From the UHGV virus genome UHGV-0135983: DNA of 35,851 nt; one strand, written 5' to 3'. Both the position numbers and the translations under genes were made by a program. Below the pieces are notes generated by a model. The model saw only the letters and a program-made list of their open reading frames with translations. It had not been told where the DNA came from and searched no databases. Of this stretch, positions 22,687-35,851 are shown piece by piece. Numbering within the stretch: the stretch's first letter is position 1; every line of letters begins with the position of its first letter. The stretch is from a virus.

Positions 22687-23520
22687 TCATGCTGCACGCT
22701 CCTGTTTCTGTTGTGCTGCAGGGTTAAGCCAGAGGCATTCAGTACGGACTTTCGTACCGCGCCCGGCACTGATGCGCGATGCTTTCTCGGTCTTCGCCCA
22801 GCCGGATAGCATGTCGTTGTAGACATCAGTGTCGTAACCGCTAATCATCACCATGCCTTTCATCGTTCTGGACACAGCGAGCAATTGCTCATGCCCTTCA
22901 ACGGTCATTTCATGGTTGTAATAACGATTTTTCTGCACTCGTGTTTCCGGCATATATGGCGGATCGATGTAATGCAGCGTCGTTTCTGCGTCGTGGGCGC
23001 GCATTACCGCCAGAGCGTCTTTGTTCTCGATGATGACTCCTTGAAGGCGCTGACAGACAACAGCGAGATTAGCCGGGTAACGCTCCCATAGATGCGCCGC
23101 CGTAGCGTATTTGCGTTTGCTGTCGCTGCGGAAGCCGGATTGACCGCCGATACCTGCGGCAGAGCCGAACCCCATACAGGCACGAACCACCATGCGGCGG
23201 GCGCGTTCGATAGGGTCAGTGGCTGGTTGCTGAGCGTGACAGAACTCATCGCGTGAATACGGGGTCAGGCAACAGGCATCCTGCAGGCGCTGGTTTAATT
23301 CAGGGTCGCGCAATACACGAAACAGGTTCACCACCTCGCCGTCGAGATCGTTGTACACCTCTGAATAGCTACGCGCTTTTTGTAGCAATACGCCAGCAGC
23401 CCCGCCGAACGGTTCGACATAGCAGACGTGTTCCGGCATCTGCTCGATAATCCAGTGTGCCAGTCGGAATTTCCCGCCGTGATATCTGATTACAGGATGC
23501 CTGATTTTTTTTTCAATCAT
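22687..23520 (-). CDS. Dam-type DNA N6-adenine methyltransferase
   Basis: 277 aa; YHGGK, FGGAAGV (AdoMet motif I) and DPPY (motif IV); A9 homopolymer in codons 3-6. Confidence 0.85.
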   Translation of the reverse strand: MIEKKIRHPVIRYHGGKFRLAHWIIEQMPEHVCYVEPFGGAAGVLLQKARSYSEVYNDLDGEVVNLFRVLRDPELNQRLQDACCLTPYSRDEFCHAQQPATDPIERARRMVVRACMGFGSAAGIGGQSGFRSDSKRKYATAAHLWERYPANLAVVCQRLQGVIIENKDALAVMRAHDAETTLHYIDPPYMPETRVQKNRYYNHEMTVEGHEQLLAVSRTMKGMVMISGYDTDVYNDMLSGWAKTEKASRISAGRGTKVRTECLWLNPAAQQKQERAA

Positions 23521-23699: not shown

Positions 23700-24290
23700 C
23701 TATGCTACCTCCCCGATATATTCTGCAATGCCCGGCAGCAGCGCCACCGCTGGCGATTCACACTGGTTGCCCCACACGTCGAAACCATGCGACGACTGGC
23801 GGGCGAATAACTCAATACGCGGTACATCGCCCAGCAGCTGCACCAGCTTTTCGCGCACGATATCCGGTTTGCGCGAATGCTCCAGACGCGGGGCCGTGAA
23901 TGACTGAACGATCCCGGCATCCAGCCGGGCGGGTAATTTCCCCTGCACAGCGAAAAGGCAATCTTCACTGTTCGCCCTGGTCATATGGCCCATTCCTATG
24001 GCCAGTTTGTCGGTCTGCCGGCTGTAGCATTTGTTCCACGTAAAGCCTTTCATGGTCATCAGGCGGAAGCCCCACGCCTCGACTACTCGCAACGCCTCCA
24101 GCGGCTGAGTCGGTACCCACCACATAGCCAGCAGGCAGTTTTCAGCGGCCAGTTCCCAGACCGGAAGACGGCAGATATCGAGCACAGTCATGGTCTGGTA
24201 TTTATGCCCGACGCCACGCTCGCCATCTTTGGCTTTATCGCGGTACGTCCAGGGCGGATCGCAATAAATTAAAGTGTATTTTTCATTCAT
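23700..24290 (-). CDS. MT-A70-family DNA N6-adenine methyltransferase
   Basis: 196 aa; IYCDPPW catalytic motif; start overlaps upstream stop as TAATG. Confidence 0.8.
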   Translation of the reverse strand: MNEKYTLIYCDPPWTYRDKAKDGERGVGHKYQTMTVLDICRLPVWELAAENCLLAMWWVPTQPLEALRVVEAWGFRLMTMKGFTWNKCYSRQTDKLAIGMGHMTRANSEDCLFAVQGKLPARLDAGIVQSFTAPRLEHSRKPDIVREKLVQLLGDVPRIELFARQSSHGFDVWGNQCESPAVALLPGIAEYIGEVA

Positions 24291-24984: not shown

Positions 24985-25214
24985 GTCCGCTTCTCCCGCC
25001 AAAAATTTAATCGTTCTTTGAAAAACTCTCGGTAGCTTTCCGGCGTCGCTGCAATCTGCTCAACGATGGCCTGTCGAGTAACTTTCTTCTCGAACAGCTG
25101 GCGTATGAGTGCCGAGGCGCGCATGTCGTAGTGCTCTTTGATCTGGCACTCCTGCGGCCATTTGGCGCGATTGAGCGGTAAGCCGGGCGGCAAGTAATCT
25201 GATTGCCCGGCCAT
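24981..25214 (-). CDS. hypothetical small protein
   Basis: 77 aa ORF with AGAGGG RBS. Confidence 0.4.
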   Translation of the reverse strand: MAGQSDYLPPGLPLNRAKWPQECQIKEHYDMRASALIRQLFEKKVTRQAIVEQIAATPESYREFFKERLNFWREKRT

Positions 25215-25217
25215 GCC

Positions 25218-25886
25218 TTATGCCCTCTTGTTCTTCGCTGACTCGATGTAATAACGGGGATCAACGCTGTTAAGCGTGAAGTGAACCACCGGCATATCGT
25301 CGTGACGGGTGATACCCACGTAATTCGACATGAACATGCCGAACACGCGATCGTGAAGTTCTTTAATCGTCACCTGACAATCTGGATAGTGCTTCTGGAT
25401 TAATGCCAGGATGCCCTGGTAAGAAAGCGTTTTGCCTTTCATCACGGCTACCAGCTGCTGCGCGGTGACGCTCCCGGCGTCCTGCTGTTCGTCGCTGGCC
25501 TGCAATGGGCGGATACTCTCCAGCACCAGACGGTGACGGCCAATACTGCCGACGCGCTGGCCCGTTTTTTTATCGAAATGCTCATTGGAGCCAGCAGACC
25601 AGACGGTCGCACCTTCGCTAAGGCGAACGCTTTTTTCACCTCTGGAATAAATCACGGTGCCGATGTGGGTTTTACGCCTGCGGCCGGAAACCGTAGGGGC
25701 GATAATTTCACGCTTAATCGGTTTTTGCGGGGTGATGCCGGGTACAGGGGCCGGACGTGGCGCCGCTACGAACACGGAACGGCTACGGGCGCGCGCGCCG
25801 GCGTTCATGCGCCAGAGAATAACGGGGAGCCAGTTGCAGCCATCATCCGGTTTTACTGGTTTTGGGTAATTTAAATTCGTGGTCAT
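25218..25886 (-). CDS. hypothetical protein (early region)
   Basis: 222 aa; start codon directly preceded by CCGAGGAAAGACCA. Confidence 0.5.
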   Translation of the reverse strand: MTTNLNYPKPVKPDDGCNWLPVILWRMNAGARARSRSVFVAAPRPAPVPGITPQKPIKREIIAPTVSGRRRKTHIGTVIYSRGEKSVRLSEGATVWSAGSNEHFDKKTGQRVGSIGRHRLVLESIRPLQASDEQQDAGSVTAQQLVAVMKGKTLSYQGILALIQKHYPDCQVTIKELHDRVFGMFMSNYVGITRHDDMPVVHFTLNSVDPRYYIESAKNKRA

Positions 25887-25924
25887 TGGTCTTTCCTCGG
25901 TTAAATCGCGCTGGTCAGGCGCGG

Positions 25925-27331
25925 TTAAAATGCATCGGTATTGAATTTCTCAGAGTATTTACGGGGTTGTTTCCGGGGTTTCGCGGCCTCCAGTTGGATA
26001 CGTGTTTTCTCTTTGCCAACATGCTGATCCATTGACAGAAAGTGTCCGTTTTTAAATTCCTGATAAATAATTGCTCCTGCGGCGCTGAAGCGGCTTTTAC
26101 CCAGGATAATTTCAGCGACGCCAGCCGCCGGGCTTTCCGGGTTGTAAACCTCATCGCGGTACAGAAACATGATGCTGTCGGCGTCCTGCTCAATGGATCC
26201 GGAATCACGCAGGTCTGACATGACCGGGCGACGCTGAGCCGCAGGGCGGGAATCGACGGCGCGGGAAAGCTGGCTAAGCGCGAACGTCGGCGTATGCAGG
26301 CGCATAGCCATAGTTTTTAGGTTTCGGGATATGTGGGCGATCGCAAGGTCGTTACGCTCTGCCTTCGGTTTTTTAATCAGGCCAACGTAATCGACAACGA
26401 TCATCGCCAGATGCGGATACCGGCGCTTATGCGTTTCGGCAACGGCGCGGATTTGCTCAATCGTCAGATCGGTAGCATCAACGATCCAGATATCGCGCCC
26501 GTTCATGGTCTCCATGGCCGCTGTAAAGCGCGCCCAGTCCTCGTCCTGCATATCGAGGGGATTACGCAGGCGTGACACTGACATGTTTCCAGAACCCGCC
26601 AGAGAGCGTTCTACGATTTGCGCAGCGGCCATTTCCATGCTGAATATCAACGCGCCACCGCCGGCAGCGGTAACACCATCGACAATCTTCAGCGCAAATT
26701 CTGTTTTACCCATACCCGGACGCCCAGCGACGACAATCAAATCCTGCAGGTTAATTCCGCCGGTCGCATCGTCCAGTTCCTCGATCCCGGTTTTCAGGTT
26801 TCGGGTGCCCTCTTCGCCGTCCATGCGCTTCTGCATGGTTTCCATGTACACCGGCAATAATTCGCTCATGTGTACCGGCTGCACGTCGCCAGTGTCGCCG
26901 GTCATGTCCAGCAGCTGCGCAACGGCAGTTTCGACAACCTGATCGCGCTGTTCCTGGTTTATCGCATCACGAATACCATCCGCACCATCCTGCAGTAATT
27001 GCGCGATGGTTCTGCTTCGCCAGGCCTTAACCATTTTTTTGGCGTAGCCTTTGAGATTGACAATCGATGTCGGGAATTTGCAAATATCGGCGAGATTGGC
27101 CAGCGTCCCCTGTCCGCCAATGGCTTCGCTAATGTACATCATGTCAATTAAGCCGCCGCTCAAGGCCTGCGCTTTGATCACACCGTAAATCTGCCTGTAG
27201 TATGCGACGCTGAAAGCTTCGCTCGGAGTGCTGGCAATCACATCAAAGGCGTCTGGCGTGGCGCCACCGTTCATCAGGCAGCCAAGAACCAGACATTCCA
27301 GCTCCTGAGTGGAATACATCATCTGCATCAT
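25925..27331 (-). CDS. replicative DNA helicase (DnaB family)
   Basis: 468 aa; Walker A GRPGMGKTEFALK; DnaB-like C-terminal blocks; overlaps initiator stop. Confidence 0.85.
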   Translation of the reverse strand: MMQMMYSTQELECLVLGCLMNGGATPDAFDVIASTPSEAFSVAYYRQIYGVIKAQALSGGLIDMMYISEAIGGQGTLANLADICKFPTSIVNLKGYAKKMVKAWRSRTIAQLLQDGADGIRDAINQEQRDQVVETAVAQLLDMTGDTGDVQPVHMSELLPVYMETMQKRMDGEEGTRNLKTGIEELDDATGGINLQDLIVVAGRPGMGKTEFALKIVDGVTAAGGGALIFSMEMAAAQIVERSLAGSGNMSVSRLRNPLDMQDEDWARFTAAMETMNGRDIWIVDATDLTIEQIRAVAETHKRRYPHLAMIVVDYVGLIKKPKAERNDLAIAHISRNLKTMAMRLHTPTFALSQLSRAVDSRPAAQRRPVMSDLRDSGSIEQDADSIMFLYRDEVYNPESPAAGVAEIILGKSRFSAAGAIIYQEFKNGHFLSMDQHVGKEKTRIQLEAAKPRKQPRKYSEKFNTDAF

Positions 27332-28317
27332 AAAGCGCCCTCCCTGGTCTTACGCAATGTCTCTGGTTTCATCAGATAGTCAAAGCTGGCGCGCCATCCG
27401 CCATTTTCACCAAAGTAAAAATCGGAGGCGTCAGCGCGGAATTTTTCGAAATAGCCCAGAAATGCGCCCGTGGTTTTGTTTTTCATATGGGCGGCCAGAC
27501 GGGTGATCATCCGGCGGCGGTCTGTGTCCAGTTCAGCAGCAGGCAGAACGTCAGCAAAAATTTCGTTGTAGCCGTTCATAACGGCTTCCGGATCAATATC
27601 GGTTTCGGTCACCGCCCATGCTTCAGCGTCAGCGAGATAACCATCAAAGCGGTTTACCCGGCAGATGTTCGCTGGCTTCGGCAGGCTATCGCCACGGCGG
27701 CGCCATGTGGCCAGCACCCAGCGGATAACTAACTGCAATTCGTCCAGGGTGTACCCTTCCCGGGTGGTGGTCGGCGTCAGCATCATCACAAACGGTTTCA
27801 GGTCACGGCAGCGGGTACCGGTTTGCTCGTTGTAAAATTCCAGCGCTTTTTTAGCATCAGAATTAATTTTTTCATCGCCTTCCCCCGTCTGGGGGTTAGG
27901 GGGATCTTTAGGTTCTATGACTGGTTCAAAAGAGTGACTGGTTCTGGTGCCGCCACACGGCATAGGGGCTATGCTTTTTGGCGGCATACCTGTGCTTTCT
28001 GACGGCATAGGGGCTATGCTTTTTGGCGGCATAGGGTTATCAAGTTTCATACAGTACAAATTCGACGCGTTACCCTTCCCGTTTTTTACGCCCGGGCGAT
28101 TTTCTTTCACCAGCAGGCCCATGGAAATTAACGCATCGATATGGTCACGCACCGCGCTTTTGCTGCACTCGCAGTGATCCGCAATATGTTTGTAAGACGG
28201 CCAGCATTCGCCGTAATCATTGGCGTTATCAGCCAGTTTGATCAGCACCAGTTTTCGAATCGGGTTTCCGGTCTTGATTGCCATTGCTTTGGCCATAAGC
28301 GTCATACTCATAGTCAA
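27328..28317 (-). CDS. replication initiation protein (HTH N-terminus, lambda O-like role)
   Basis: 329 aa; N-terminal HTH-like region; internal peptide repeat PMPPKSIAPMP x2 coinciding with DNA iterons; conserved phage replication C-terminal region. Confidence 0.7.
   Translation of the reverse strand: MTMSMTLMAKAMAIKTGNPIRKLVLIKLADNANDYGECWPSYKHIADHCECSKSAVRDHIDALISMGLLVKENRPGVKNGKGNASNLYCMKLDNPMPPKSIAPMPSESTGMPPKSIAPMPCGGTRTSHSFEPVIEPKDPPNPQTGEGDEKINSDAKKALEFYNEQTGTRCRDLKPFVMMLTPTTTREGYTLDELQLVIRWVLATWRRRGDSLPKPANICRVNRFDGYLADAEAWAVTETDIDPEAVMNGYNEIFADVLPAAELDTDRRRMITRLAAHMKNKTTGAFLGYFEKFRADASDFYFGENGGWRASFDYLMKPETLRKTREGAL
27958..28037. repeat. iteron-like direct repeats inside the initiator gene (candidate ori)
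   Basis: CGGCATA core at 27958, 27982, 28003, 28027 (21-24 bp spacing); two ~31-bp units CGGCATAGGGGCTATGCTTTTTGGCGGCATA. Confidence 0.6.
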
Positions 28318-28535
28318 ATCCCCAGCGAGTCAGCCAACTGACGGCAGGCGATTTCGTATTCTTTCTGGGTGAGTCCCGCTTCCTGCAGGTCTGCCTTGCG
28401 CAGTTCATAGCGTTCCCAGATTGTCAGCGCAGTAGCGCGACGCTCTTCGAAAATCGATTCGATATCTTCCATCGGGACTTGTACCCCGTTCCGGCGAAAC
28501 CCATTCCGCCAGGTGATGCGGTCTTGTGTTCTCAT
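28314..28535 (-). CDS. hypothetical small protein
   Basis: 73 aa from MRTQDRITWRNGF; ATG directly preceded by CCGAGGAAAGACCA; the longer 162-aa ORF to 28802 would overlap the YdaT-like gene. Confidence 0.5.
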   Translation of the reverse strand: MRTQDRITWRNGFRRNGVQVPMEDIESIFEERRATALTIWERYELRKADLQEAGLTQKEYEIACRQLADSLGI

Positions 28536-28555
28536 TGGTCTTTCCTCGGTACAGG

Positions 28556-29002
28556 TTAAACGCTGGTCAGGCGCTGTGTTTCTCGCATAGCTTGCAATGC
28601 TCTGGCGACTTGCTGCGGCCCGTCTCTGGCGTCGAGTAACAACGCGATAATCGCCGCTGCAAACTCGCGAATGGCCACACAAATTAAATACTGGGTGGAC
28701 ATACCCAAGCGCGCGTAACGTTCTGCCGGCAGCGCCGCTTCCATCGCTTTGACCAGCGCCAGAGTTTTGGCTCTCGCGGCTTTGGTCTCGCCTCGCAACC
28801 AACGAAAAATTTGTTGGCGGTTATTGTTGATTGCCCGCCAGTCGGCGTTTCCATCTGCATCTTCGATCTGGTGCAGCTTCAGCGAACCGGTATTACCACC
28901 AAGACGAAACCACATGCGGCTTATCTCGATAGCAACCAGCTCCTGCCCGCTTTCCGCTGCCCAGTTAAAGATCTCTCGTTTAAGTTCTTCGAGGTATTCC
29001 AC
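28556..29002 (-). CDS. YdaT-like protein (CII-position regulator of Rac-type switch)
   Basis: 148 aa; QQIFRWLRGETKAARAK and overall pattern resemble Rac YdaT as recalled; follows the Cro-like gene. Confidence 0.6.
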   Translation of the reverse strand: MEYLEELKREIFNWAAESGQELVAIEISRMWFRLGGNTGSLKLHQIEDADGNADWRAINNNRQQIFRWLRGETKAARAKTLALVKAMEAALPAERYARLGMSTQYLICVAIREFAAAIIALLLDARDGPQQVARALQAMRETQRLTSV

Positions 29003-29064
29003 TTCGAGCGTCTCCTGTCGCTGAAAATTGATTAAGCGTAATCAGATTTCGATAACGCCTGTAG

Positions 29065-29262
29065 TTATGCTTTAGACGTGTTTTGCTCTTCGTAAAAAGT
29101 AGGGTCGTATTTCAAGGCGCCTGCAGTTACATGCTCAAGTCGCGCAGCTCGCTTTTCAGGAACAACAGCACCCCAGCGGGTTACAGCGACTTGAGAGATA
29201 CCTAATGCACGCGCAACAGCGGTTTTAGTTCCAAAAAATCTGATAACAGTTTCGGTCTTCAT
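29065..29262 (-). CDS. Cro/YdaS-like HTH regulator
   Basis: 65 aa; HTH AVARALGISQVAVTRW; AGGAG RBS; divergent from repressor gene. Confidence 0.7.
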   Translation of the reverse strand: MKTETVIRFFGTKTAVARALGISQVAVTRWGAVVPEKRAARLEHVTAGALKYDPTFYEEQNTSKA

Positions 29263-29330
29263 AGTTTCCTCTCCTAACGTCAGTTAGGAACATAAATACT
29301 AACGAAAGTTATGTCAAGTTAACTTATATT
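29263..29330. promoter_or_regulatory. immunity switch region: operator palindromes and divergent promoters
   Basis: Palindromes TAACGTCAGTTA (29276..29287), TAACGAAAGTTA (29300..29311), AAGTTAACTT (29316..29325); - strand TTGACA (29312..29317) 17 nt from TATGTT (29289..29294); + strand TATATT (29325..29330) just before the repressor start. Confidence 0.6.
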
Positions 29331-29744
29331 ATGGACATGAAAAAATTGACCTTTAACGATCGCATTACATCGAGACGGAAAGAGCTTGGCTTAACCCAAC
29401 AGCAGCTCGCCGATGCCGTTGGCATATCTGGCGTAAGCGTCTACAAGTGGGAAGCAGGTATTAACACCCCAAAAGGGCAAAATCTGTTTTCTCTCGCTGA
29501 GGCTCTTCGTTGCTCTCCGACATGGTTACTTAACGGAACCGATAGCGATGAACCGTTGAAGGCGGAAGACCTTTTACCTCGGTTAGATGATCGCCAAAAG
29601 CTATTGCTTGATCTTTTTGACTCCCTACCTGAATCAGAAAAAGATAGACACATCAATGAGTTGAAAGATAAAGTTGACGGATTCCAGCGATTGTTTGATG
29701 AGTTACTTTTGGTAAAAAAGAAAAAAAACACTCCAAAAAAATAA
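29331..29744 (+). CDS. CI/RacR-like repressor (HTH_XRE, no S24 peptidase domain)
   Basis: 137 aa; HTH LGLTQQQLADAVGISGVSVYKWEAG; possibly leaderless from the ATG at 29337. Confidence 0.75.
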   Translation: MDMKKLTFNDRITSRRKELGLTQQQLADAVGISGVSVYKWEAGINTPKGQNLFSLAEALRCSPTWLLNGTDSDEPLKAEDLLPRLDDRQKLLLDLFDSLPESEKDRHINELKDKVDGFQRLFDELLLVKKKKNTPKK

Positions 29745-29750
29745 ATTAAA

Positions 29751-29780
29751 GGCAATGTTTTCAATGCATTGCCTTTTTTT
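29751..29780 (+). terminator. intrinsic terminator after repressor gene
   Basis: GGCAATG...CATTGCC hairpin followed by TTTTTTT. Confidence 0.6.
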
Positions 29781-29793
29781 ACACCTCAAATAT

Positions 29794-29844
29794 TAACTTT
29801 TGTTAGTAAAAAATATTGCCAATAAAAATACCTTTGGTTATGCT
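29794..29844 (+). promoter_or_regulatory. operator-like palindrome plus sigma70-like promoter
   Basis: TAACTTTTGTTA (29794..29805) matches the TAAC-N4-GTTA pattern; TTGCCA (29816..29821), 17-nt spacer, TATGCT (29839..29844). Confidence 0.45.
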
Positions 29845-29926
29845 TCATCACATCAACGACGCACTAACCACGCGGCAGTTGTTCAGAAACGTTCCGCCGA
29901 CCCGGCGTTAAGGGGGAGGAGAAGTG

Positions 29927-30145
29927 ATGGAAAACGCTGTATTAGGTGCCGTCGGACCAACGCTGAATGTGTTGCTGGATGCACTGAAAGAAGAGAAAGG
30001 AGCCGCCAACGTCGAGGACGTCAAAGCGGTCATCCAGGTTATCAGTGAAGTTGTAGGCAAGTGCGATGGTGATCTGGCTACTGGTTACGCGGTTTGGGAT
30101 GAACTGCTGAATGCGGTGTTACGACATATTTCGACAAAGGGTTAA
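29927..30145 (+). CDS. hypothetical small acidic protein
   Basis: 72 aa; GGGGGAGGA RBS 6 nt upstream of ATG. Confidence 0.5.
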   Translation: MENAVLGAVGPTLNVLLDALKEEKGAANVEDVKAVIQVISEVVGKCDGDLATGYAVWDELLNAVLRHISTKG

Positions 30146-30320
30146 GGCTAATACCCTCTGGTGGGTATAACTCTCGATTGATTCTCACGACTGCTGACAT
30201 GAAATCTACACGGTTATCAATCGGCATCGTAGACAAAATTACTGTCAATAATACCTGGTGTGCTTTCAGCTCTTCTCTGACTGCAGCTAGCTCAGATTTA
30301 AGTTGTTCAAGTTCCGACAT
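30078..30320 (-). CDS. hypothetical small protein (antisense/convergent to 29927..30145)
   Basis: 81 aa from MSELEQLKSELAAVREEL, AAGGGA RBS; 3' end overlaps the + strand gene by 68 nt; uncertain which is expressed. Confidence 0.35.
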   Translation of the reverse strand: MSELEQLKSELAAVREELKAHQVLLTVILSTMPIDNRVDFMSAVVRINRELYPPEGISLNPLSKYVVTPHSAVHPKPRNQ

Positions 30321-30426
30321 TTGTAATCCCTTTTGCTGTTGTTGGAATGGCAAAGGTAGCACGACCGGGCGTGTTGAAAAATCCCGGAACTGAATTCTTC
30401 GGGTCGCCGACAGTACGATGACATGC

Positions 30427-30769
30427 GGGAAAGACCGCAACGAACATCCATTGCTGTGTGTAGTCTTGGCCGGGCGCCCCGGGCATTTTTTTAACACAGT
30501 AACGATTTATGCGACCCTTCAGTGAAAACTGAAGCCCTCGAAAAGAGGGACCCCGTGAGGAAAGACCAGTGAGCCTGACCAGCTCTGGCGCCGGGAAAGA
30601 CCGGGAGGAAAGACCAATGACCTACGGGCATGACCAGCCCTGACAGCCGGGAAAGACCGGCAACCTTTAGATGGCAAAAGGCCCGCACAAGGCGGGCCAG
30701 TTACCCCGAACGGTGACCAAACCATTCGGACTTATCACAAGCGACCAAGCTTGTGATGAGGAAAGACCA
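30427..30769 (+). repeat. cluster of six GGAAAGACC motifs in apparently non-coding DNA
   Basis: GAGGAAAGACCA at 30557, 30605, 30758 (each followed by GTG/ATG and a short in-frame ORF); GGGAAAGACC at 30427, 30593, 30649; 22-bp inverted repeat TCACAAGC-N6-GCTTGTGA at 30735..30756. Confidence 0.6.
30463..30490 (+). terminator. putative intrinsic terminator
   Basis: GC-rich hairpin CCGGGCGCCCCGGG followed by T7 run. Confidence 0.5.
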
Positions 30770-30824
30770 ATGCCGACAGAGTCAACACTGATCGGCTCTG
30801 AGTATACATCAACAAGGAGTCGCT

Positions 30825-31148
30825 ATGGAAGCGCTTACCATCCCCGTGAAGCTGTACATTCACTACATCACCAACACTTTCTCATCCGATAAATATCACG
30901 TTTCAATCTGTGACATGTCACGGAACCACCCGGACATTTATGTGCTGCTGGAAACGCGTGATATCACCATCGATATAAACCAGCCGGAACCCTTCGACCT
31001 TATAGCCTTGCAGGTTGACCAGCTGCGCAGCCAGAAAGAAAACCTTGCTGCCGACGCTCAACGCCAGATCGCCGCGGTCGATGACAAAATTCAGCAGCTG
31101 CTTTGCATCGATCATTCTCAGATTGAAGAAAGTGATATTCCCTTCTGA
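30825..31148 (+). CDS. hypothetical protein (first gene of recombination operon)
   Basis: 107 aa; AAGGAG RBS 6 nt upstream. Confidence 0.5.
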   Translation: MEALTIPVKLYIHYITNTFSSDKYHVSICDMSRNHPDIYVLLETRDITIDINQPEPFDLIALQVDQLRSQKENLAADAQRQIAAVDDKIQQLLCIDHSQIEESDIPF

Positions 31149-31155
31149 GGCGCTT

Positions 31156-31401
31156 ATGAAGAAAAATCCAGTTATCGAAAAAGTTATGGCTTCCGGCCTG
31201 TCTGTATTCGAGCATGAAAATAATAGCGACTTTGGTTCAGGAACTATGCATATCACTATTATCGGTGGTGTCCGACGCGTCGAATTCTATCCAACGACAG
31301 GCACAGTCTATGCCAATGCCGAGAAGGGAAAGTTTCCTGCATTCCGACAGAAAAAAGCCGGTATCGAAGTTGCAATCCGTCTCGCTAAATCCGGCGCCTG
31401 A
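31156..31401 (+). CDS. hypothetical small protein
   Basis: 81 aa from MKKNPVIEKV; GAGG RBS; longer ORF from 31015 overlaps upstream gene. Confidence 0.45.
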   Translation: MKKNPVIEKVMASGLSVFEHENNSDFGSGTMHITIIGGVRRVEFYPTTGTVYANAEKGKFPAFRQKKAGIEVAIRLAKSGA

Positions 31402-31430
31402 CCTGCGCCAGTAACTAAGAGGAAAGACCA

Positions 31431-33650
31431 ATGACCATCTACAACGGCTTATTTGAGCCAAAGAAATCGGCGATTAAAGACTGCGGCGCCGTGCAGCTGG
31501 CGATCGCCATCGATGCGCCAAACAAAAAAGTGGCCGAAAGCATTATGACCGGCAAACTCTGGGAATCATACCCGGCCAATGGTGACAACTATTTCAAACC
31601 GAAACTGTGGGAACACGTTGAAGGCCAGCCGCTGCCGACCGTTGGCCAGTTCGATGAGTCATTCGCCCAGCAGCATACTTTTGACGGTGAAAAATGGGTT
31701 TCTACTGCGCAGGATAGCGCTTCCGGAAGCAGTGCAGGTTTACCTGCCGACGATGAAGTGATCGACCTGATGACCGTTTCCGCAGAGGAACGCTTTGCTG
31801 CCGTCCTGCTTTTTAGCACCGCTGCGATTGATGGCCATCTTTATTCTCAGGTTGTGGATTATCTGGATAACCTGAAAAACCACGATGGCGAATTTGAAGA
31901 GGAAGATCGCTTTAACTTTAATGTGCTGTGCGCCCTACAAAATAACTTCCCGGTTCAAAGCATGCATGTGGAAGGTCTGAATAACCTTGTTCAGGGGATT
32001 TTCTCCCACTTTGAAAACCAGACGCCAGGCAAAGCGGCTATCTCTCAGTTCGTTAAACGCTGGCTTGAGAATCCGGGCAAGCGCGACGAACTGGCCCCCG
32101 GCGTATATAAAAATACCGCTCTCAGCACCAGCACCAGCACCAGCACCGATGATAAAACACCCGTGGTAATTTCTAAGCGGGGTTATAAACACACATATGC
32201 AACGCTGGATCAGGAGATCGCTACCGCCCTTCTCCCGCTGGCGCCTGATGCGCCGGTACTATCCGGAAACCTTCTGGACGCTAAGAAGATGATTGCCGAT
32301 GACCGGGAAGATTTTAAACGCTGGTCTGCATCGCTGCACACCACTCCGCAGATACTCAAATATGACCGCGCCAGCATCTTCGGTGTAGTGCAGAACGTAC
32401 CGGCGAAAGATACCTACCATTTCCCTGACAGCCTGCGCCGCCATATCGATTCATGGCTGGAGGCCAACGGCCGCTTTGAAGAAACCGATACAGGATCCGT
32501 TAAACAGACAGAGGCAACGCAAAATATCGCCTCAAACGTGGGCGAAAAAGCGGAAGTGCCGCAGACGGTTGTAACCGATAACCAAGCGAAACAGGCGCGT
32601 GAGGCGCTCAACGATATGGGCTATGGCGTATATGCATCTGGTGAAGGTGCGGAACCGGAAGATAAGTTAAGCGTTAAGGCTGAGAAAATAGCAGATGAAG
32701 CTGCTCGTTTGTCTCGTGATATTAACCTCAAAGATCGCATGCCAGATGCCGGAGATTTGATTCCAGCAATTCAACCAAATGAAAATATAGCCTCAAAAAA
32801 AATTGAATCATATCTATCTGAATTGAATGACGACCAGGCCAAAGCAAACCTTAGCGTCTGGAATCGCGTCCAGCGCACAGATCCGGCCTTCGTCGAAAAG
32901 AACAGTTTCGGCGCAGGGCTTCACTCAATCCGGGCGCAGTACATGCTGATGCGCGCAACGGAAGTTCTCGGAATGGAAGGAACCGGTTGGGGCGTTGATA
33001 TCAAAGAAGAGCGCATAGATCGAGGTGTGCCGCTTATGGAGCCAATACAGGACCAATCAGGAAAAATAATTGGCCAGAAACCGGTAAGGGACGGGGATGG
33101 CTCATTATTCTGTTTATCCGTACATACAATTCGGATTGAACTCTGGTACCTGCGAGACGGAAAGAAGGGGCGCATTCCGGCCTATGGACATACGGATTAC
33201 ATCACCAAGGGTGGTGATGGTGCATTAAAAATGGAGAAAGAAGCCGCCAAAAAATCACTGACTGACGCTACAACCAAAGCACTATCCCATCTCGGATTTG
33301 GTGCAGACGTGTACATGAACATGCATAACGACAACGAATACACTTCAAAATTGAATGAGATATTCGAAATCAAAAAAGCCAGCGAAAGCATAGAAGATAT
33401 AGTGCGACTTCGTCAGGAATTAGACGACGATCTTACCTCCGTTGCTGAAACCCTATCTACTGGCGTGACTGTTAACGAAGTTGAAAAGGTTTTTGGCACG
33501 ATAGCCCGAAAACTCGAAGTTCACCGCAAGGATGCAGAATCAAAAGGCGATACACAGCGCTCTCGGTACCTCAGTGGCCGGTTGCGCCGCCTGACTGAAA
33601 TCAAAAATGGACGTCTCGCCGAACTAAATAAATCCGAGGAGAAAGCATAA
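31431..33650 (+). CDS. Erf-family single-strand annealing protein with ~480-aa N-terminal extension
   Basis: 739 aa; C-terminal region has Erf-like blocks NSFGAGLHSIRAQYM and KALSHLGFGADVY (cf. P22 Erf NSFGKYKYR / LNGLFGIDD); start preceded by GAGGAAAGACCA; (AGCACC)x4 encodes an STSTSTST linker. Confidence 0.6.
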   Translation: MTIYNGLFEPKKSAIKDCGAVQLAIAIDAPNKKVAESIMTGKLWESYPANGDNYFKPKLWEHVEGQPLPTVGQFDESFAQQHTFDGEKWVSTAQDSASGSSAGLPADDEVIDLMTVSAEERFAAVLLFSTAAIDGHLYSQVVDYLDNLKNHDGEFEEEDRFNFNVLCALQNNFPVQSMHVEGLNNLVQGIFSHFENQTPGKAAISQFVKRWLENPGKRDELAPGVYKNTALSTSTSTSTDDKTPVVISKRGYKHTYATLDQEIATALLPLAPDAPVLSGNLLDAKKMIADDREDFKRWSASLHTTPQILKYDRASIFGVVQNVPAKDTYHFPDSLRRHIDSWLEANGRFEETDTGSVKQTEATQNIASNVGEKAEVPQTVVTDNQAKQAREALNDMGYGVYASGEGAEPEDKLSVKAEKIADEAARLSRDINLKDRMPDAGDLIPAIQPNENIASKKIESYLSELNDDQAKANLSVWNRVQRTDPAFVEKNSFGAGLHSIRAQYMLMRATEVLGMEGTGWGVDIKEERIDRGVPLMEPIQDQSGKIIGQKPVRDGDGSLFCLSVHTIRIELWYLRDGKKGRIPAYGHTDYITKGGDGALKMEKEAAKKSLTDATTKALSHLGFGADVYMNMHNDNEYTSKLNEIFEIKKASESIEDIVRLRQELDDDLTSVAETLSTGVTVNEVEKVFGTIARKLEVHRKDAESKGDTQRSRYLSGRLRRLTEIKNGRLAELNKSEEKA

Positions 33651-34210
33651 TGACTTCCACTACTGCTATTGCCATCGCCGCGGACTATCAGAACCTGCTG
33701 CAACTGCTGGAAAGCTCTGATGACCTGACTCCGGAAATGATCGCCGATACCCTCGAAGGCATGGAAGGAGAGCTAGCCGATAAACTGGATTCCATCATGG
33801 TTATCGCACGTAATAACCTCGGCAATGCCAGCACCTGCGATGATGAAATAAAACGCTTGGCCGAACGTAAGAAGTTCTTTGAGAATAAGGATAAGGCTCT
33901 GCGTAAGTATATTCTCTCCTGCCTGATGGCGGCCGGGCTGGATAAGCTGAAAACGGCAAAAAACACTTTCACTGCTCGCAAAGGTAGCGTAAGCGTTGTG
34001 ATTGATAATACCGATCTTCTTCCCGATGAACTGGTGACTACCCAGGTTGTTATCGCGCCCGATAAAAAGGCCATCAAGGAAGCGATTGAATCAGCACAGG
34101 CAGCAGCGGCCCAGATTACCGCTGACGGCGGAGAGATACCGGAAGAACTGTTAAACCCAGTGCCGGGCGCTCACCTTGAGATTGGCGAACGTTCATTACA
34201 GGTGCGCTGA
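33650..34210 (+). CDS. Gam-like / Sipho_Gp157-like protein (putative host-nuclease inhibitor)
   Basis: 186 aa; helical N-terminus, central LKTAKNTFTARKGSVSVVID resembles Mu Gam-type pattern; start overlaps Erf-like stop. Confidence 0.45.
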   Translation: MTSTTAIAIAADYQNLLQLLESSDDLTPEMIADTLEGMEGELADKLDSIMVIARNNLGNASTCDDEIKRLAERKKFFENKDKALRKYILSCLMAAGLDKLKTAKNTFTARKGSVSVVIDNTDLLPDELVTTQVVIAPDKKAIKEAIESAQAAAAQITADGGEIPEELLNPVPGAHLEIGERSLQVR

Positions 34211-34211
34211 T

Positions 34212-34397
34212 ATGCTCAAAATCACCCTGAAGCGAGGGGATGCCATTCACGTTATTTTTCCTGATGGCACCAAAGGTAAGATCGAAGCCTGCGCACGTTG
34301 CGAGTTTGACTTTAATTTTCCCTATAGCGTGAAAATCACCAGAGAAAATGGCGCGCTACGGAATAAACCAAACCTGATTAAGCCTAATCAGAAATAA
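34212..34397 (+). CDS. hypothetical small protein
   Basis: 61 aa from MLKITLKRGD. Confidence 0.4.
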   Translation: MLKITLKRGDAIHVIFPDGTKGKIEACARCEFDFNFPYSVKITRENGALRNKPNLIKPNQK

Positions 34398-34446
34398 AAA
34401 CCAACCATCGCTAGCATAGCTGCCCCTTTTGAAAACGGAGAACGCT

Positions 34447-34641
34447 ATGCTGCGATGGCAACCGGGAGCTGTATTGCTCTCAGATTTCGATATCAAGATT
34501 GGCCGGTTATCCGCCAGCGTACGAAAGAAGACCCTGACCAGGACTGAAATCGAACGCGCATGCGAAGAAGCTGATAACGCGATCGCCGGCATGATGAGGA
34601 AAGACCATGGTCAGAAAAAACGACCTTCTCACCGACGCTGA
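34447..34641 (+). CDS. hypothetical small basic protein
   Basis: 64 aa from MLRWQPGAV; ACGGAG RBS; overlaps next gene start. Confidence 0.3.
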   Translation: MLRWQPGAVLLSDFDIKIGRLSASVRKKTLTRTEIERACEEADNAIAGMMRKDHGQKKRPSHRR

Positions 34642-34831
34642 GATGATTGAATTTACAGGTTGTAAACAACCAATCAAACAAAAAGAGGTTCTAGATCGTG
34701 GAGGTGTCTCATACATACAGGATAGAGAGGGGCGCCCTATGGTTACCTGGACGCATATTAATGCAGTTCTGAATGGACAAATAACCATCCAATTAGGCAG
34801 CGAAGAAAAACCAAATTTTGAGGCGATATAG
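34607..34831 (+). CDS. DUF4224-like small protein immediately upstream of integrase (putative excisionase)
   Basis: 74 aa; LLTDAEMIEFTGCKQPIKQKEVLDRGG pattern; start preceded by GAGGAAAGACC. Confidence 0.5.
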   Translation: MVRKNDLLTDAEMIEFTGCKQPIKQKEVLDRGGVSYIQDREGRPMVTWTHINAVLNGQITIQLGSEEKPNFEAI

Positions 34832-35851
34832 ATGGGAAGGAGAAGAAAAGATCCAACAGATAATAAATTGCCACCTCGTGTTTCAAAAACCAAAACTCGG
34901 TATTACTACAAACCCACAGCACGAGAAACTATAACGCTAGGGCCAATAACTCTTTCAATGTCTGCATTGTGGAAACGTTATGAGGAAGAAAGACGAAATC
35001 ACTCAGGAGTAATGACGTTTGAAAAGCTCTGGGGAATGTTTTTAAAGAGCGCCTATTACACCGAACTCGCAATTCGTACCCAAAAAGATTATTTGCAACA
35101 TCAAAAAAAATTATTAGTCGTTTTTGGAAAAATGAAAGCTGATCTTATCAAGCCCGAAGAAGTTCGCCAGTTTATGGATCGACGTGGCCTAAAAAGCAAA
35201 AATCAGGCTAATCAGGAAATGAGTAGTATGTCGAGGGTGTTTCGATGGGGTTTTGAACGTGGTTATGTAAAAGGCAACCCATGTGCCGGGGTTAGTAAGT
35301 TTTCGTTAAAGGCACGTGAACAATATATTACCGATGAAGATTATCTGGTTATCTATAAAAATGCTGATTCAGTTGTGCGGGCTGCAATGGAAATATCATA
35401 CCTGTGTGCTGCCCGCCAGGCTGACGTGTTGGGATTGTGCTGGATGCAGATAACAGACAAAGGGATATTCATTCAACAGGGTAAGACGGGGAAAAAGCAG
35501 ATCAAGGTCTGGACCCCTCGCCTTCATCAAGCCTTCGTTACGGCACAAATAGATTGCCCCAAACTGTCTGCTAACGGACTAGTGATCTACAACAACGATA
35601 AAGGCCAGTTTATCCGTAAGACGTTCAATAATCGCTGGCTTAAAGCCGTACGCGCAGCACAAAACGAATTGGGGCGACAACTGGACTATACATTTCACGA
35701 TATCAAAGCGAAGGGGATTTCAGATTTCGAGGGTAGCAGTAAGGACAAGCAGATGTTCAGTGGCCACAAGACGGAAAGTCAGGTTCTGGTGTATGACAGA
35801 AAGGTACAAATAAGCCCTACTTTGAATCTACCCGTAATTGGCGGTGATTGA
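34832..35851 (+). CDS. int: tyrosine integrase (lambda Int family)
   Basis: 339 aa; N-terminal arm-binding-like region, C-terminal catalytic region with conserved R...H-x-x-R...Y arrangement; stop is the final codon of the window. Confidence 0.9.
   Translation: MGRRRKDPTDNKLPPRVSKTKTRYYYKPTARETITLGPITLSMSALWKRYEEERRNHSGVMTFEKLWGMFLKSAYYTELAIRTQKDYLQHQKKLLVVFGKMKADLIKPEEVRQFMDRRGLKSKNQANQEMSSMSRVFRWGFERGYVKGNPCAGVSKFSLKAREQYITDEDYLVIYKNADSVVRAAMEISYLCAARQADVLGLCWMQITDKGIFIQQGKTGKKQIKVWTPRLHQAFVTAQIDCPKLSANGLVIYNNDKGQFIRKTFNNRWLKAVRAAQNELGRQLDYTFHDIKAKGISDFEGSSKDKQMFSGHKTESQVLVYDRKVQISPTLNLPVIGGD

Follow-up and report, generated by a model that had tools for sequence, protein, structure and literature searches.

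A repeated start-associated cassette in a Rac-like prophage as the probable target of a predicted phage-encoded antisense small RNA

Here we describe a short sequence cassette that recurs at gene starts and in a non-coding leader in the early region of the UHGV virus genome UHGV-0135983, a stretch of 35,851 nucleotides (nt) that we refer to as the window. The window is a lambdoid, Rac-like prophage, and the cassette is a 12-mer, GAGGAAAGACCA, which contains a Shine-Dalgarno core and resembles the start-associated sequences (SAS) of certain mycobacteriophages. On comparative evidence we consider it probable that this 12-mer serves as a start-associated operator, the common target of a small RNA (sRNA) that the phage itself would encode and that would act as an antisense to several ribosome-binding sites (RBS) at once.

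Early gene blocks, the cassette that heads them and its conservation

A cro-like gene (29065-29262, minus strand) and a cI-like gene (29331-29744, plus strand) diverge from the pR/pL promoter pair of the prophage. The leftward operon comprises cro, a YdaT/CII-like gene, a gene for a 73-amino-acid (aa) protein, an O-like gene and the DnaB helicase gene, followed by a 222-aa gene, several small genes and two adenine methyltransferase genes, with a hairpin and a copy of the cassette in front of both the 73-aa and the 222-aa genes. The rightward operon begins with a long leader and continues through 107-aa and 81-aa genes, a further hairpin and cassette, the genes for an exonuclease, Gp157 and a 61-aa protein, a 64-aa gene, and finally a cassette followed by xis and int. 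Because the genes behind each cassette overlap or lie only a few bases apart, each cassette heads a tightly packed block.

GAGGAAAGACCA occurs seven times in the window, while 100 dinucleotide-preserving shuffles of it yielded none (mean 0.00, maximum 0), which bears out the view of the first-pass annotation of this DNA that such a number lies far beyond chance. All seven copies run in the same direction as local transcription, and allowing up to two mismatches adds merely three weak sites. The 9-mer core GGAAAGACC is found ten times, always in the early region between 25.8 and 34.6 kb and never in the structural genes. Four of the seven 12-mers adjoin real gene starts, and the other three lie in the non-coding leader, 3' of a pL-like promoter; the earlier statement that all copies are oriented with a start codon thus stands for the four, and for the common orientation with transcription, while the three leader copies are not conserved start contexts.

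On the minus strand, the cassette at 25887-25898 immediately precedes the ATG of the 222-aa gene (25218-25886; phrog_4183), the first of a block that runs through 77-aa, 56-aa and 175-aa genes to the MT-A70 gene and onward, and the cassette at 28536-28547 lies 5' of the ATG of the 73-aa gene (28314-28535; phrog_2465), which leads the O-like and DnaB helicase genes. On the plus strand, the copy at 31419-31430 precedes the ATG of a 739-aa gene (31431-33650) that heads the block of exonuclease, Gp157 and 61-aa genes. The product of this gene, previously described as Erf-like, proved instead to be a RecE-like exonuclease (phrog_2489, E = 4e-284; a match to NF007259 is weak). The Xis-like gene named at 34607 was correctly recognised as such: it is a DUF4224/excisionase gene (xis, 34607-34831, plus strand) heading the xis/int pair, and its cassette (34596-34607) overlaps the ATG by one letter, the last A of the motif being the A of the start codon. 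At all four gene copies the GAGG core lies 8-9 nt 5' of the ATG, which fits Shine-Dalgarno spacing. The xis copy sits within codons (..MMRKD..) of the 64-aa open reading frame (ORF; 34447-34641, plus strand), which overlaps the xis start by 35 nt and is kept in 91 of 101 loci at 61-93% identity, and every wobble position of the cassette is frozen. Among the gene starts of the early and regulatory region that lack the cassette, those inspected have Shine-Dalgarno sequences unrelated to it.

At three of the four gene copies a hairpin of 15-17 nt, GCGC-CUGACCA-GCGC, stands 9-11 nt 5' of the cassette. Its instances are CGCGC-CUGACCA-GCGCG at 25907-25923 (minus strand), between the helicase stop codon and the cassette, AGCGC-CUGACCA-GCGUU at 28559-28575 (minus strand), inside the last codons of the YdaT/CII-like gene, and GGCGC-CUGACCU-GCGCC at 31393-31409 (plus strand), 5' of the exonuclease cassette. 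The boxB hairpin of phage P22 reads GCGC-UGACAAA-GCGC. This similarity, together with the presence of the modules in both early operons ahead of delayed-early genes, would suit nut-type antitermination, with an N-type processive antiterminator acting at boxB-like hairpins and the cassette serving as a loading element beside them. We hold such a reading to be highly improbable, given that boxA-like matches are as frequent as expected (27 against 27.7) with none beside the hairpins, that the first pL gene is not an arginine-rich N-like one and no pL gene has an arginine-rich motif at its N-terminus, that a genome carries 4-10 sites rather than 2, and that the loop lacks a GNRA-like pentaloop sequence.

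Some further features of these blocks may be recorded. The two adenine methyltransferase genes lie at 23700-24290 and 22687-23520 (both minus strand), one being of the MT-A70 family with a DPPW motif and the other of the D12 class with a DPPY motif; as a curiosity only, the AGACC and UGACC of the motifs match the DRACH pattern of MT-A70 RNA methylases. The ribosome site of the helicase gene (27332-27360, minus strand, 5' of the start at 27331) reads AAGACCAGGGAGG; here AAGACCA, one half of the cassette, immediately precedes a differing Shine-Dalgarno sequence.

To examine the cassette among relatives, viral contigs were searched with the exonuclease, which gave 72 loci with protein identities from 96% down to 46%. 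Every one of these loci holds 5-12 exact copies of the 9-mer at matching places: the starts of the exonuclease and xis genes, the genes that follow the CII-like and helicase genes, and an optional extra gene, with 3-6 further copies in the leader. Orthologous starts in over 100 related loci of Escherichia, Citrobacter, Enterobacter and Serratia keep the 9-12-mer letter for letter, although the adjoining proteins fall to 46% identity. At exonuclease starts the motif is exact in 68 of 71 loci, the remaining three each carrying one C>U change, and in 308 unique GA-type contexts its 11-12 nt are invariant between flanks that are almost free of information. The spacer from cassette to start codon varies from 0 to 4 nt across relatives while the motif itself is unchanged. 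The first-pass annotation had proposed a shared translational operator rather than an ordinary Shine-Dalgarno sequence, and had suggested orthologous starts in related prophages as one place to look; judged by sequence comparison, the conservation of the cassette is beyond that of an ordinary Shine-Dalgarno sequence, and the operator proposal is upheld to that extent.

The same layout is found in the 'Stenotrophomonas' phages BUCT708/709, E. coli SE11 (NC_011415, around 2.3040 Mb), Serratia grimesii, a Citrobacter metagenome-assembled genome and Enterobacter sichuanensis, and the element is present in 453 of 5426 complete E. coli genomes, O25b:H4-ST131 strains among them. In a scan of viral contigs for a 15-mer, multiple copies occurred only in this prophage family; single copies occurred in 65 loci, many of them clearly differing in GC content. 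The two-copy pattern, apart from chance matches, was confined to prophages of the Enterobacterales. Phages vB_SmeS_BUCT708/709 (L001 OM816835 / H1 OM816834) have about 85% identity to the window over the early region and have the cassettes and the predicted sRNA gene in common with it; their stated Stenotrophomonas host looks doubtful.

The optional extra gene, whose product starts with MDIKK or MDIRK, comes with a second copy of the hairpin and cassette, and one downstream gene is joined to several unrelated upstream sequences precisely at this module. Such insertions and mosaic joints are what would be expected if no trans-acting factor were involved and the hairpin and cassette served as an optimised and insulated module that loads ribosomes for de novo initiation, with selection for strength keeping it uniform and cassette-type recombination at gene boundaries spreading it, in the manner of the PeSL elements of T4-type phages or of lambdoid mosaic linkers. 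The GAGG core with its A-rich spacer of 8-9 nt is indeed a competent ribosome site, and the cassette genes head closely spaced or overlapping blocks. Strength by itself, however, does not require that 9-12 nt be letter-perfect in over 100 loci from four host genera, given the diversity of the other ribosome sites that were inspected in the window; nor would a loading module explain leader copies without start codons or a motif that stays constant while its spacer changes. We therefore give this explanation only a small chance, and prefer to see the cassette as the target of an antisense RNA, a candidate for which lies in the pL leader.

The pL leader and a predicted minus-strand RNA

A pL-like promoter, TTGCCA-17-TATGCT (29816-29844, plus strand), would drive the leader and the rightward early operon. 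An RprA-like leader RNA (30388-30494, plus strand) follows, which ends at an intrinsic terminator and carries a GCGG-GAAAGA-CCGC site with the 9-mer at 30428-30436. Its score against the RprA model (RF00034) is 32.6 bits, below the gathering score of 70, and the two RNAs have in common solely an exact 18-nt block, AUUGCUGUGUGUAGUCUU, and an intrinsic terminator. The RprA-like RNA, which forms the 5' part of the pL leader in relatives, at times with an insertion of 300-400 nt, may be a prophage mimic of the host sRNA. In the window the leader is itself interrupted, relative to most relatives, by an insertion of moron-type appearance at about 29880-30385, with a 72-aa gene (29927-30145, plus strand) and a convergent 80-aa gene (30078-30320, minus strand; phrog_20080).

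The leader then continues into a cassette-like array (30557-30660, plus strand), which in the sense of the leader lies 5' of the sRNA terminator described below and offers candidate sRNA-binding or decoy sites. It holds 12-mers at 30557-30568 and 30605-30616, GACCA-loop hairpins at 30571-30585 and 30626-30640, and CCGG-GAAAGA-CCGG hairpins at 30591-30604 and 30647-30660; the last leader copy of the 12-mer follows at 30758-30769 (plus strand). The three copies of the 9-mer beyond the seven 12-mers, at 30428, 30594 and 30650, each lie within a small hairpin, either CCGG-GAAAGA-CCGG or GCGG-GAAAGA-CCGC. In diverse relatives the order is the same: the RprA-like RNA and its terminator, a cassette, a hairpin with a (C/A)UGACCA loop, CUGACAG, a CCGG-GAAAGA-CCGG hairpin, a GC-rich hairpin with an A run before it and no U run after it, two hairpins with GACCAA loops, and directly thereafter the last cassette. 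The stems of the two hairpins before this last cassette are wholly different among relatives, while their loops read GACCAA throughout. Since the cassette is followed in the leader by AAUG, AACG or AAAG, the leader copies are not conserved start sites, and the ORFs behind the three leader cassettes, of 8 to 40 codons, are not conserved either; leader-peptide attenuation was rejected because the AUG after the leader cassettes is not conserved.

Several other roles for the leader elements were considered and set aside. The 9-mer GGAAAGACC equals nt 2056-2064 of E. coli 23S rRNA, the A2058 site of macrolides, Erm and TLR13, as checked on rrl; we treat this as coincidence, and a local alignment of the leader with 23S rRNA scored 23 against a shuffle mean of 22.5, with a second shared block, AACCUUUA, that relatives do not keep. 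Base pairing between the cassette and the GUCUUUGCC block of the RprA-like RNA would amount to only 5-6 bp, and this block varies (GUCUUGG/GUCUUUG) while the cassette is constant. Mimicry of anticodon loops or T-loops by the 7-nt loops was discarded on inspection, as the sequence rules are unmet. A sense-strand complement of the kind found in c4/CI RNAs was also sought, and no GGTCTTTCC occurs in the sense orientation of any early transcript. The complement of the cassette is thus found on the opposite strand only, which led to the idea of an antisense gene.

The structure of the leader points in the same direction. RNAalifold on the plus strand supported the last hairpin, yet nearly all of its 'broken' pairs were C-A or A-C, and as these are G-U pairs on the other strand, they point to a transcript from the minus strand. 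A minus-strand sRNA, a predicted anti-SAS RNA of about 117 nt (from ~30794 to 30676, minus strand) recognised by its fold, covariation, -10 box and terminator, appears to have as its template the last leader cassette and the two hairpins beside it. For the segment 30672-30795 the folding energy is -65.8 kcal/mol (z = -9.4) when the minus strand is read and -54.0 for the plus strand. Read 5' to 3', the predicted RNA consists of a helix P1 (GAUCAG..UUGGUC), a UUUCCUC linker, the stem-loops SL1 and SL2, and a terminator, GGCCCGC/GCGGGCC followed by UUUU; the templates of SL2 (30706-30729) and SL1 (30734-30757) are the plus-strand hairpins that read GACCAA in their loops. All 30 predicted sRNAs compared, of 112-136 nt, share this one fold. 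In each of the 30, the sole single-stranded linker is UUUCCUC, whose 7 nt are the complement of GAGGAAA and hence an anti-Shine-Dalgarno sequence, and the loops of SL1 and SL2 both read UUGGUC, with an opening energy of 0.0 kcal/mol.

In the minus-strand alignment of these 30 relatives, SL1 and SL2 are 96% paired, with compensatory changes at 11 of 18 pairs and a covariation score reached by none of 500 shuffles, and the cells of the stems contain 59 G-U against 4 A-C on that strand. A covariance model built from 39 unique sequences of the predicted sRNA found one strong match (57-137 bits) per locus in 56 family loci, on the minus strand when the exonuclease is oriented plus; six control loci gave 0 matches, and one weak match at locus L022 (21.6 bits, E = 0.007) is probably noise. 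In the alignment to this model, 17 of 25 pairs over four helices are compensatory, and 93-96% of cells are paired across alignments. The putative promoter has a -10 box, TATACT (30801-30806, minus strand), which is TATAAT in some relatives; all 30 relatives have TATA[C/A]T without exception, inside flanks that otherwise vary. The box is placed in the non-coding gap 5' of the Shine-Dalgarno sequence of the 107-aa gene, and the transcript is predicted to begin about 7 nt downstream of TATACT. At the other end the terminator hairpin is GC-rich and is followed by a run of U4-7 on the minus strand only.

A near-palindrome, GCGCT-TCCAT-AGCG(A/G)C (30812-30834, plus strand), is invariant in the 30 relatives and covers both the -35 position of the predicted sRNA promoter and the codon at which the 107-aa gene starts; it could be a regulator site, or merely a result of coding constraint. 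A search of Rfam over 25000-35851 found no family that matches the predicted sRNA, the sole hint being a weak Trp-leader match at the terminator, and literature searches on the motif, its complement, 'RprA-like' RNAs and prophage antisense RNAs found nothing describing this element.

These patterns also bear on whether the cassette might act as DNA. Its asymmetric sites of 9-12 bp, which run with transcription at gene boundaries, resemble the stoperators of Cluster A phages (PMC3203893), and by analogy with mycobacteriophage L5 the cassette could be an asymmetric operator whose bound protein blocks elongation according to orientation. The neighbouring elements, however, covary in the manner of RNA, with G-U pairs, the position of the motif is fixed relative to the start codon and not to promoters, and the cI/cro operator region (29262-29331) repeats CTAAC-N4-GTTAG, which is unrelated to the motif. 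A stoperator-like role consequently carries almost no weight with us beside that of an RNA target.

Pairing with dispersed cassettes and a proposed mechanism

Within the predicted sRNA, CAUUGGUCUUUCCUC is the exact complement of GAGGAAAGACCAAUG, the cassette together with the start codon, a complementarity of 15 nt. UUGGUC, which occurs three times in the sRNA, complements GACCAA, the 3' half of the cassette, and the CCGG-GAAAGA-CCGG copies in the leader show in their loops a GAAAGA that is complementary to the UCUUUC of the seed. Where the template in the leader reads AACG, the resulting CGUU of the sRNA could still pair with AAUG through a G-U pair. Potential targets were ranked by seed pairing and opening energies; full-length RNAduplex was set aside, as it ignores intramolecular structure and returns long duplexes without meaning. 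Among the 48 starts of the window scored against the complement of the cassette, strong pairing through the cassette is confined to the four cassette genes. Seed pairing and target opening together have a median of -1.2 kcal/mol over these 48 starts, while the 222-aa gene reaches -22.8, the exonuclease -22.2 and the 73-aa gene -20.0.

The few deviations from the cassette are of a restricted kind. Unique contexts that depart from the core by a single letter, at positions 2-11, show A>G seven times, C>U four times and A>U once, and never G>A. As A>G and C>U changes in the target retain G-U pairing to a fixed antisense RNA, this spectrum fits an sRNA partner, whereas a protein or DNA site predicts no such bias.

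The principal competitor among trans-acting factors is a protein. The cassette and the GACCA-loop hairpins could be bound by a sequence-specific protein of phage or host that recognises RNA and either represses or activates initiation, modelled on T4 RegA, the MS2 coat protein, Mu Com or CsrA, in which case the minus-strand RNA would be an unrelated cis-antisense transcript. The motif is invariant and placed at ribosome sites, as such a protein would have it, and the recurrence of GACC in the upstream hairpin loops suggests a second half-site. CsrA sites present GGA in hairpin loops, and the cassette hairpins resemble these. Candidates on the phage side are the 73-aa, 107-aa and 222-aa proteins, and small conserved proteins without assigned function accompany the motif in nearly all loci (the 73-aa protein in 97 of 101 and the 107-aa protein in 98 of 101). 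Domain and family searches, however, detected no RNA-binding domain in the candidates. A protein would also leave unexplained the minus-strand structure of the hairpins beside the leader cassette (59 G-U against 4 A-C), the restriction of variants to A>G and C>U, and the fact that the 9-mer is tolerated both single-stranded and within CCGG...CCGG hairpins. We regard protein binding as unlikely, and continue to favour the antisense RNA.

A number of observations weigh against an antisense RNA and have to be set beside those that favour it. Any RNA antisense to a copy of the cassette necessarily holds its complement, so that the complementarity alone is not independent evidence; the argument rests therefore on the distant copies being identical, on the spectrum of variants, on an anti-Shine-Dalgarno linker that is exposed and on the recurrence of UUGGUC in both loops. 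The variant spectrum in turn comprises 12 contexts that are non-independent. The UUGGUC part of the seed is paired in P1, and opening of the 15-nt seed costs about 10 kcal/mol. At xis the energy of seed to target is only -8.4 kcal/mol, because the site is occluded by local structure. The -35 element of the promoter (TTCCAT or TCCATA) is weak, and since it overlaps the codon at which the 107-aa gene begins, conservation of the promoter region is in part coding constraint. The hairpins upstream of the genes have a near-fixed GCGC stem and no sense-strand excess of G-U (7 G-U against 16 A-C), and the loop variant UGGUU of the sRNA does not co-vary with AACC in the loops of the target hairpins (2/7 against 12/79). 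Loop-loop kissing between the sRNA and the target hairpins was accordingly abandoned as unsupported, the loop variants being uncorrelated; the gene-upstream hairpins might serve as a kissing partner, as a stabiliser or as a processing site.

If the antisense RNA is expressed as predicted, it would pair in trans with the copies of GAGGAAAGACCAAUG that stand at the leading cistrons of the delayed-early blocks, namely 73-aa/O/helicase, 222-aa/.../methylases, exonuclease/Gp157 and xis/int. Pairing would mask the Shine-Dalgarno sequence and the AUG and thereby block initiation, and the whole block would be silenced through its close or overlapping downstream genes, probably with Rho polarity. Those copies of the cassette that lie in the pL leader and the RprA-like RNA would be additional binding sites and could act either as attenuator targets or as decoys that titrate the sRNA after pL fires, and in its timing the system might act as a lysogenic lock, as a shut-off, or through titration by pL transcripts. 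A bolder version, which we put forward as doubtful, is an early switch made of RNA only, in which a constitutive anti-RBS sRNA locks all delayed-early blocks (replication, recombination and excision) and the pL leader, released as an RprA-like sRNA with 3-6 cassette mimics that are single-stranded or lie in hairpin loops, becomes a sponge after derepression of pL, the same logic perhaps operating in the Cluster K mycobacteriophages.

Should the antisense mechanism be true, one small RNA would bring every delayed-early function of a lambdoid prophage under joint translational control by way of a standardised cassette, a regulon made by copying an operator rather than by evolving many imperfect targets. 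Given the 453 of 5426 E. coli genomes that carry the element, it could then have effects on prophage induction, on excision and on immunity to superinfection in lineages of clinical importance. The cassette with its cognate sRNA would also represent a natural and compact design for multiplexed translational control in synthetic biology.

Comparison with known systems

A close formal analogue of the cassette is the SAS of Cluster K mycobacteriophages, an asymmetric repeat of 12-13 nt with a Shine-Dalgarno core that lies a few bases 5' of some non-structural gene starts, in one orientation, conserved beyond rRNA pairing and in some cases with an upstream inverted repeat (PMC3203893). It was described in 2011, and its role was still ill-defined or not known in the literature of 2024 and unverified in 2025. 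The cassette is likewise an asymmetric repeat with a Shine-Dalgarno core, found in one orientation at a subset of non-structural starts; the SAS consensus, however, is GGGATAGGAGCCC and its hosts belong to another phylum, which makes the cassette an analogue and not a member. The ESAS elements of Cluster K are pairs of 17-bp inverted repeats that are now read as SigA-like promoters, whereas the upstream elements here are 15-nt RNA hairpins, and an antisense RNA was not proposed for SAS.

Our finding raises, for mycobacteriophage SAS, the possibility of an RNA bearing the SAS complement. In phage Anaya (JF704106; locus L207 34871-34883, ~59871-59883), the sole reverse copy of SAS is the apical loop, CCUCCUAUCC, of 10-11 nt, on a hairpin of about 20 bp. 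The gap around this hairpin is non-coding and has matches in 182 mycobacteriophage records, with homologous gaps in L208-L215; the outer stem of the hairpin differs between phages and is still paired, with minimum free energies of -24 to -32 kcal/mol. Cluster K phages may thus have an anti-SAS RNA, and if their logic is the same, start-associated sequences in general would be the regulons of phage anti-SAS RNAs.

As regards shut-off by a single factor, T4 RegA similarly acts on many early genes at their initiation regions; RegA is a protein with a loose consensus, whereas here the site is exact, with an RNA as the best candidate for its ligand. The possible sponge has a parallel in AgvB and AsxR of enterohaemorrhagic E. 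coli, prophage RNAs with target mimics that titrate an sRNA (PMC12197685). The pL leader and the RprA-like RNA carry cassette mimics in a comparable manner, with the differences that a sponge role is hypothetical here and that the titrated sRNA would be the phage's own.

By analogy, the closest functional kin of the predicted RNA are the antisense RNAs of temperate phages, P1/P7 c4, P4 CI, P22 sar and lambda OOP. The c4 RNA of P1/P7 (immI), P4 CI and N15 CA are small structured RNAs that pair with short, repeated, RBS-containing sites, and the block to translation silences downstream genes (PMC12197685). They have in common with the RNA described here exposed sequences complementary to RBS sites, in our case as predicted from sequence, although the Rfam C4 model gave no match over 25000-35851 at the gathering threshold or at E<=5. 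They differ in being processed from the sense transcript and in acting on sites within one operon, where the predicted RNA would be a convergent cis-antisense to the pL leader directed at no fewer than four (>=4) separate gene starts in both early operons. P22 sar and lambda OOP are similar in another respect, as short antisense RNAs of the lambdoid early region with their own promoter and terminator that overlap a regulatory or ribosome-site region (PMC12197685). These act only on the overlapping gene (ant and cII, respectively), whereas the presumed trans targets here are identical distant cassettes, and the overlapped copy of the cassette is not itself a conserved ribosome site. Most likely the predicted RNA acts as a multi-target anti-RBS RNA in the manner of these phage antisense RNAs, and it would differ from them in its convergent transcription and in its many dispersed targets that share one cassette.

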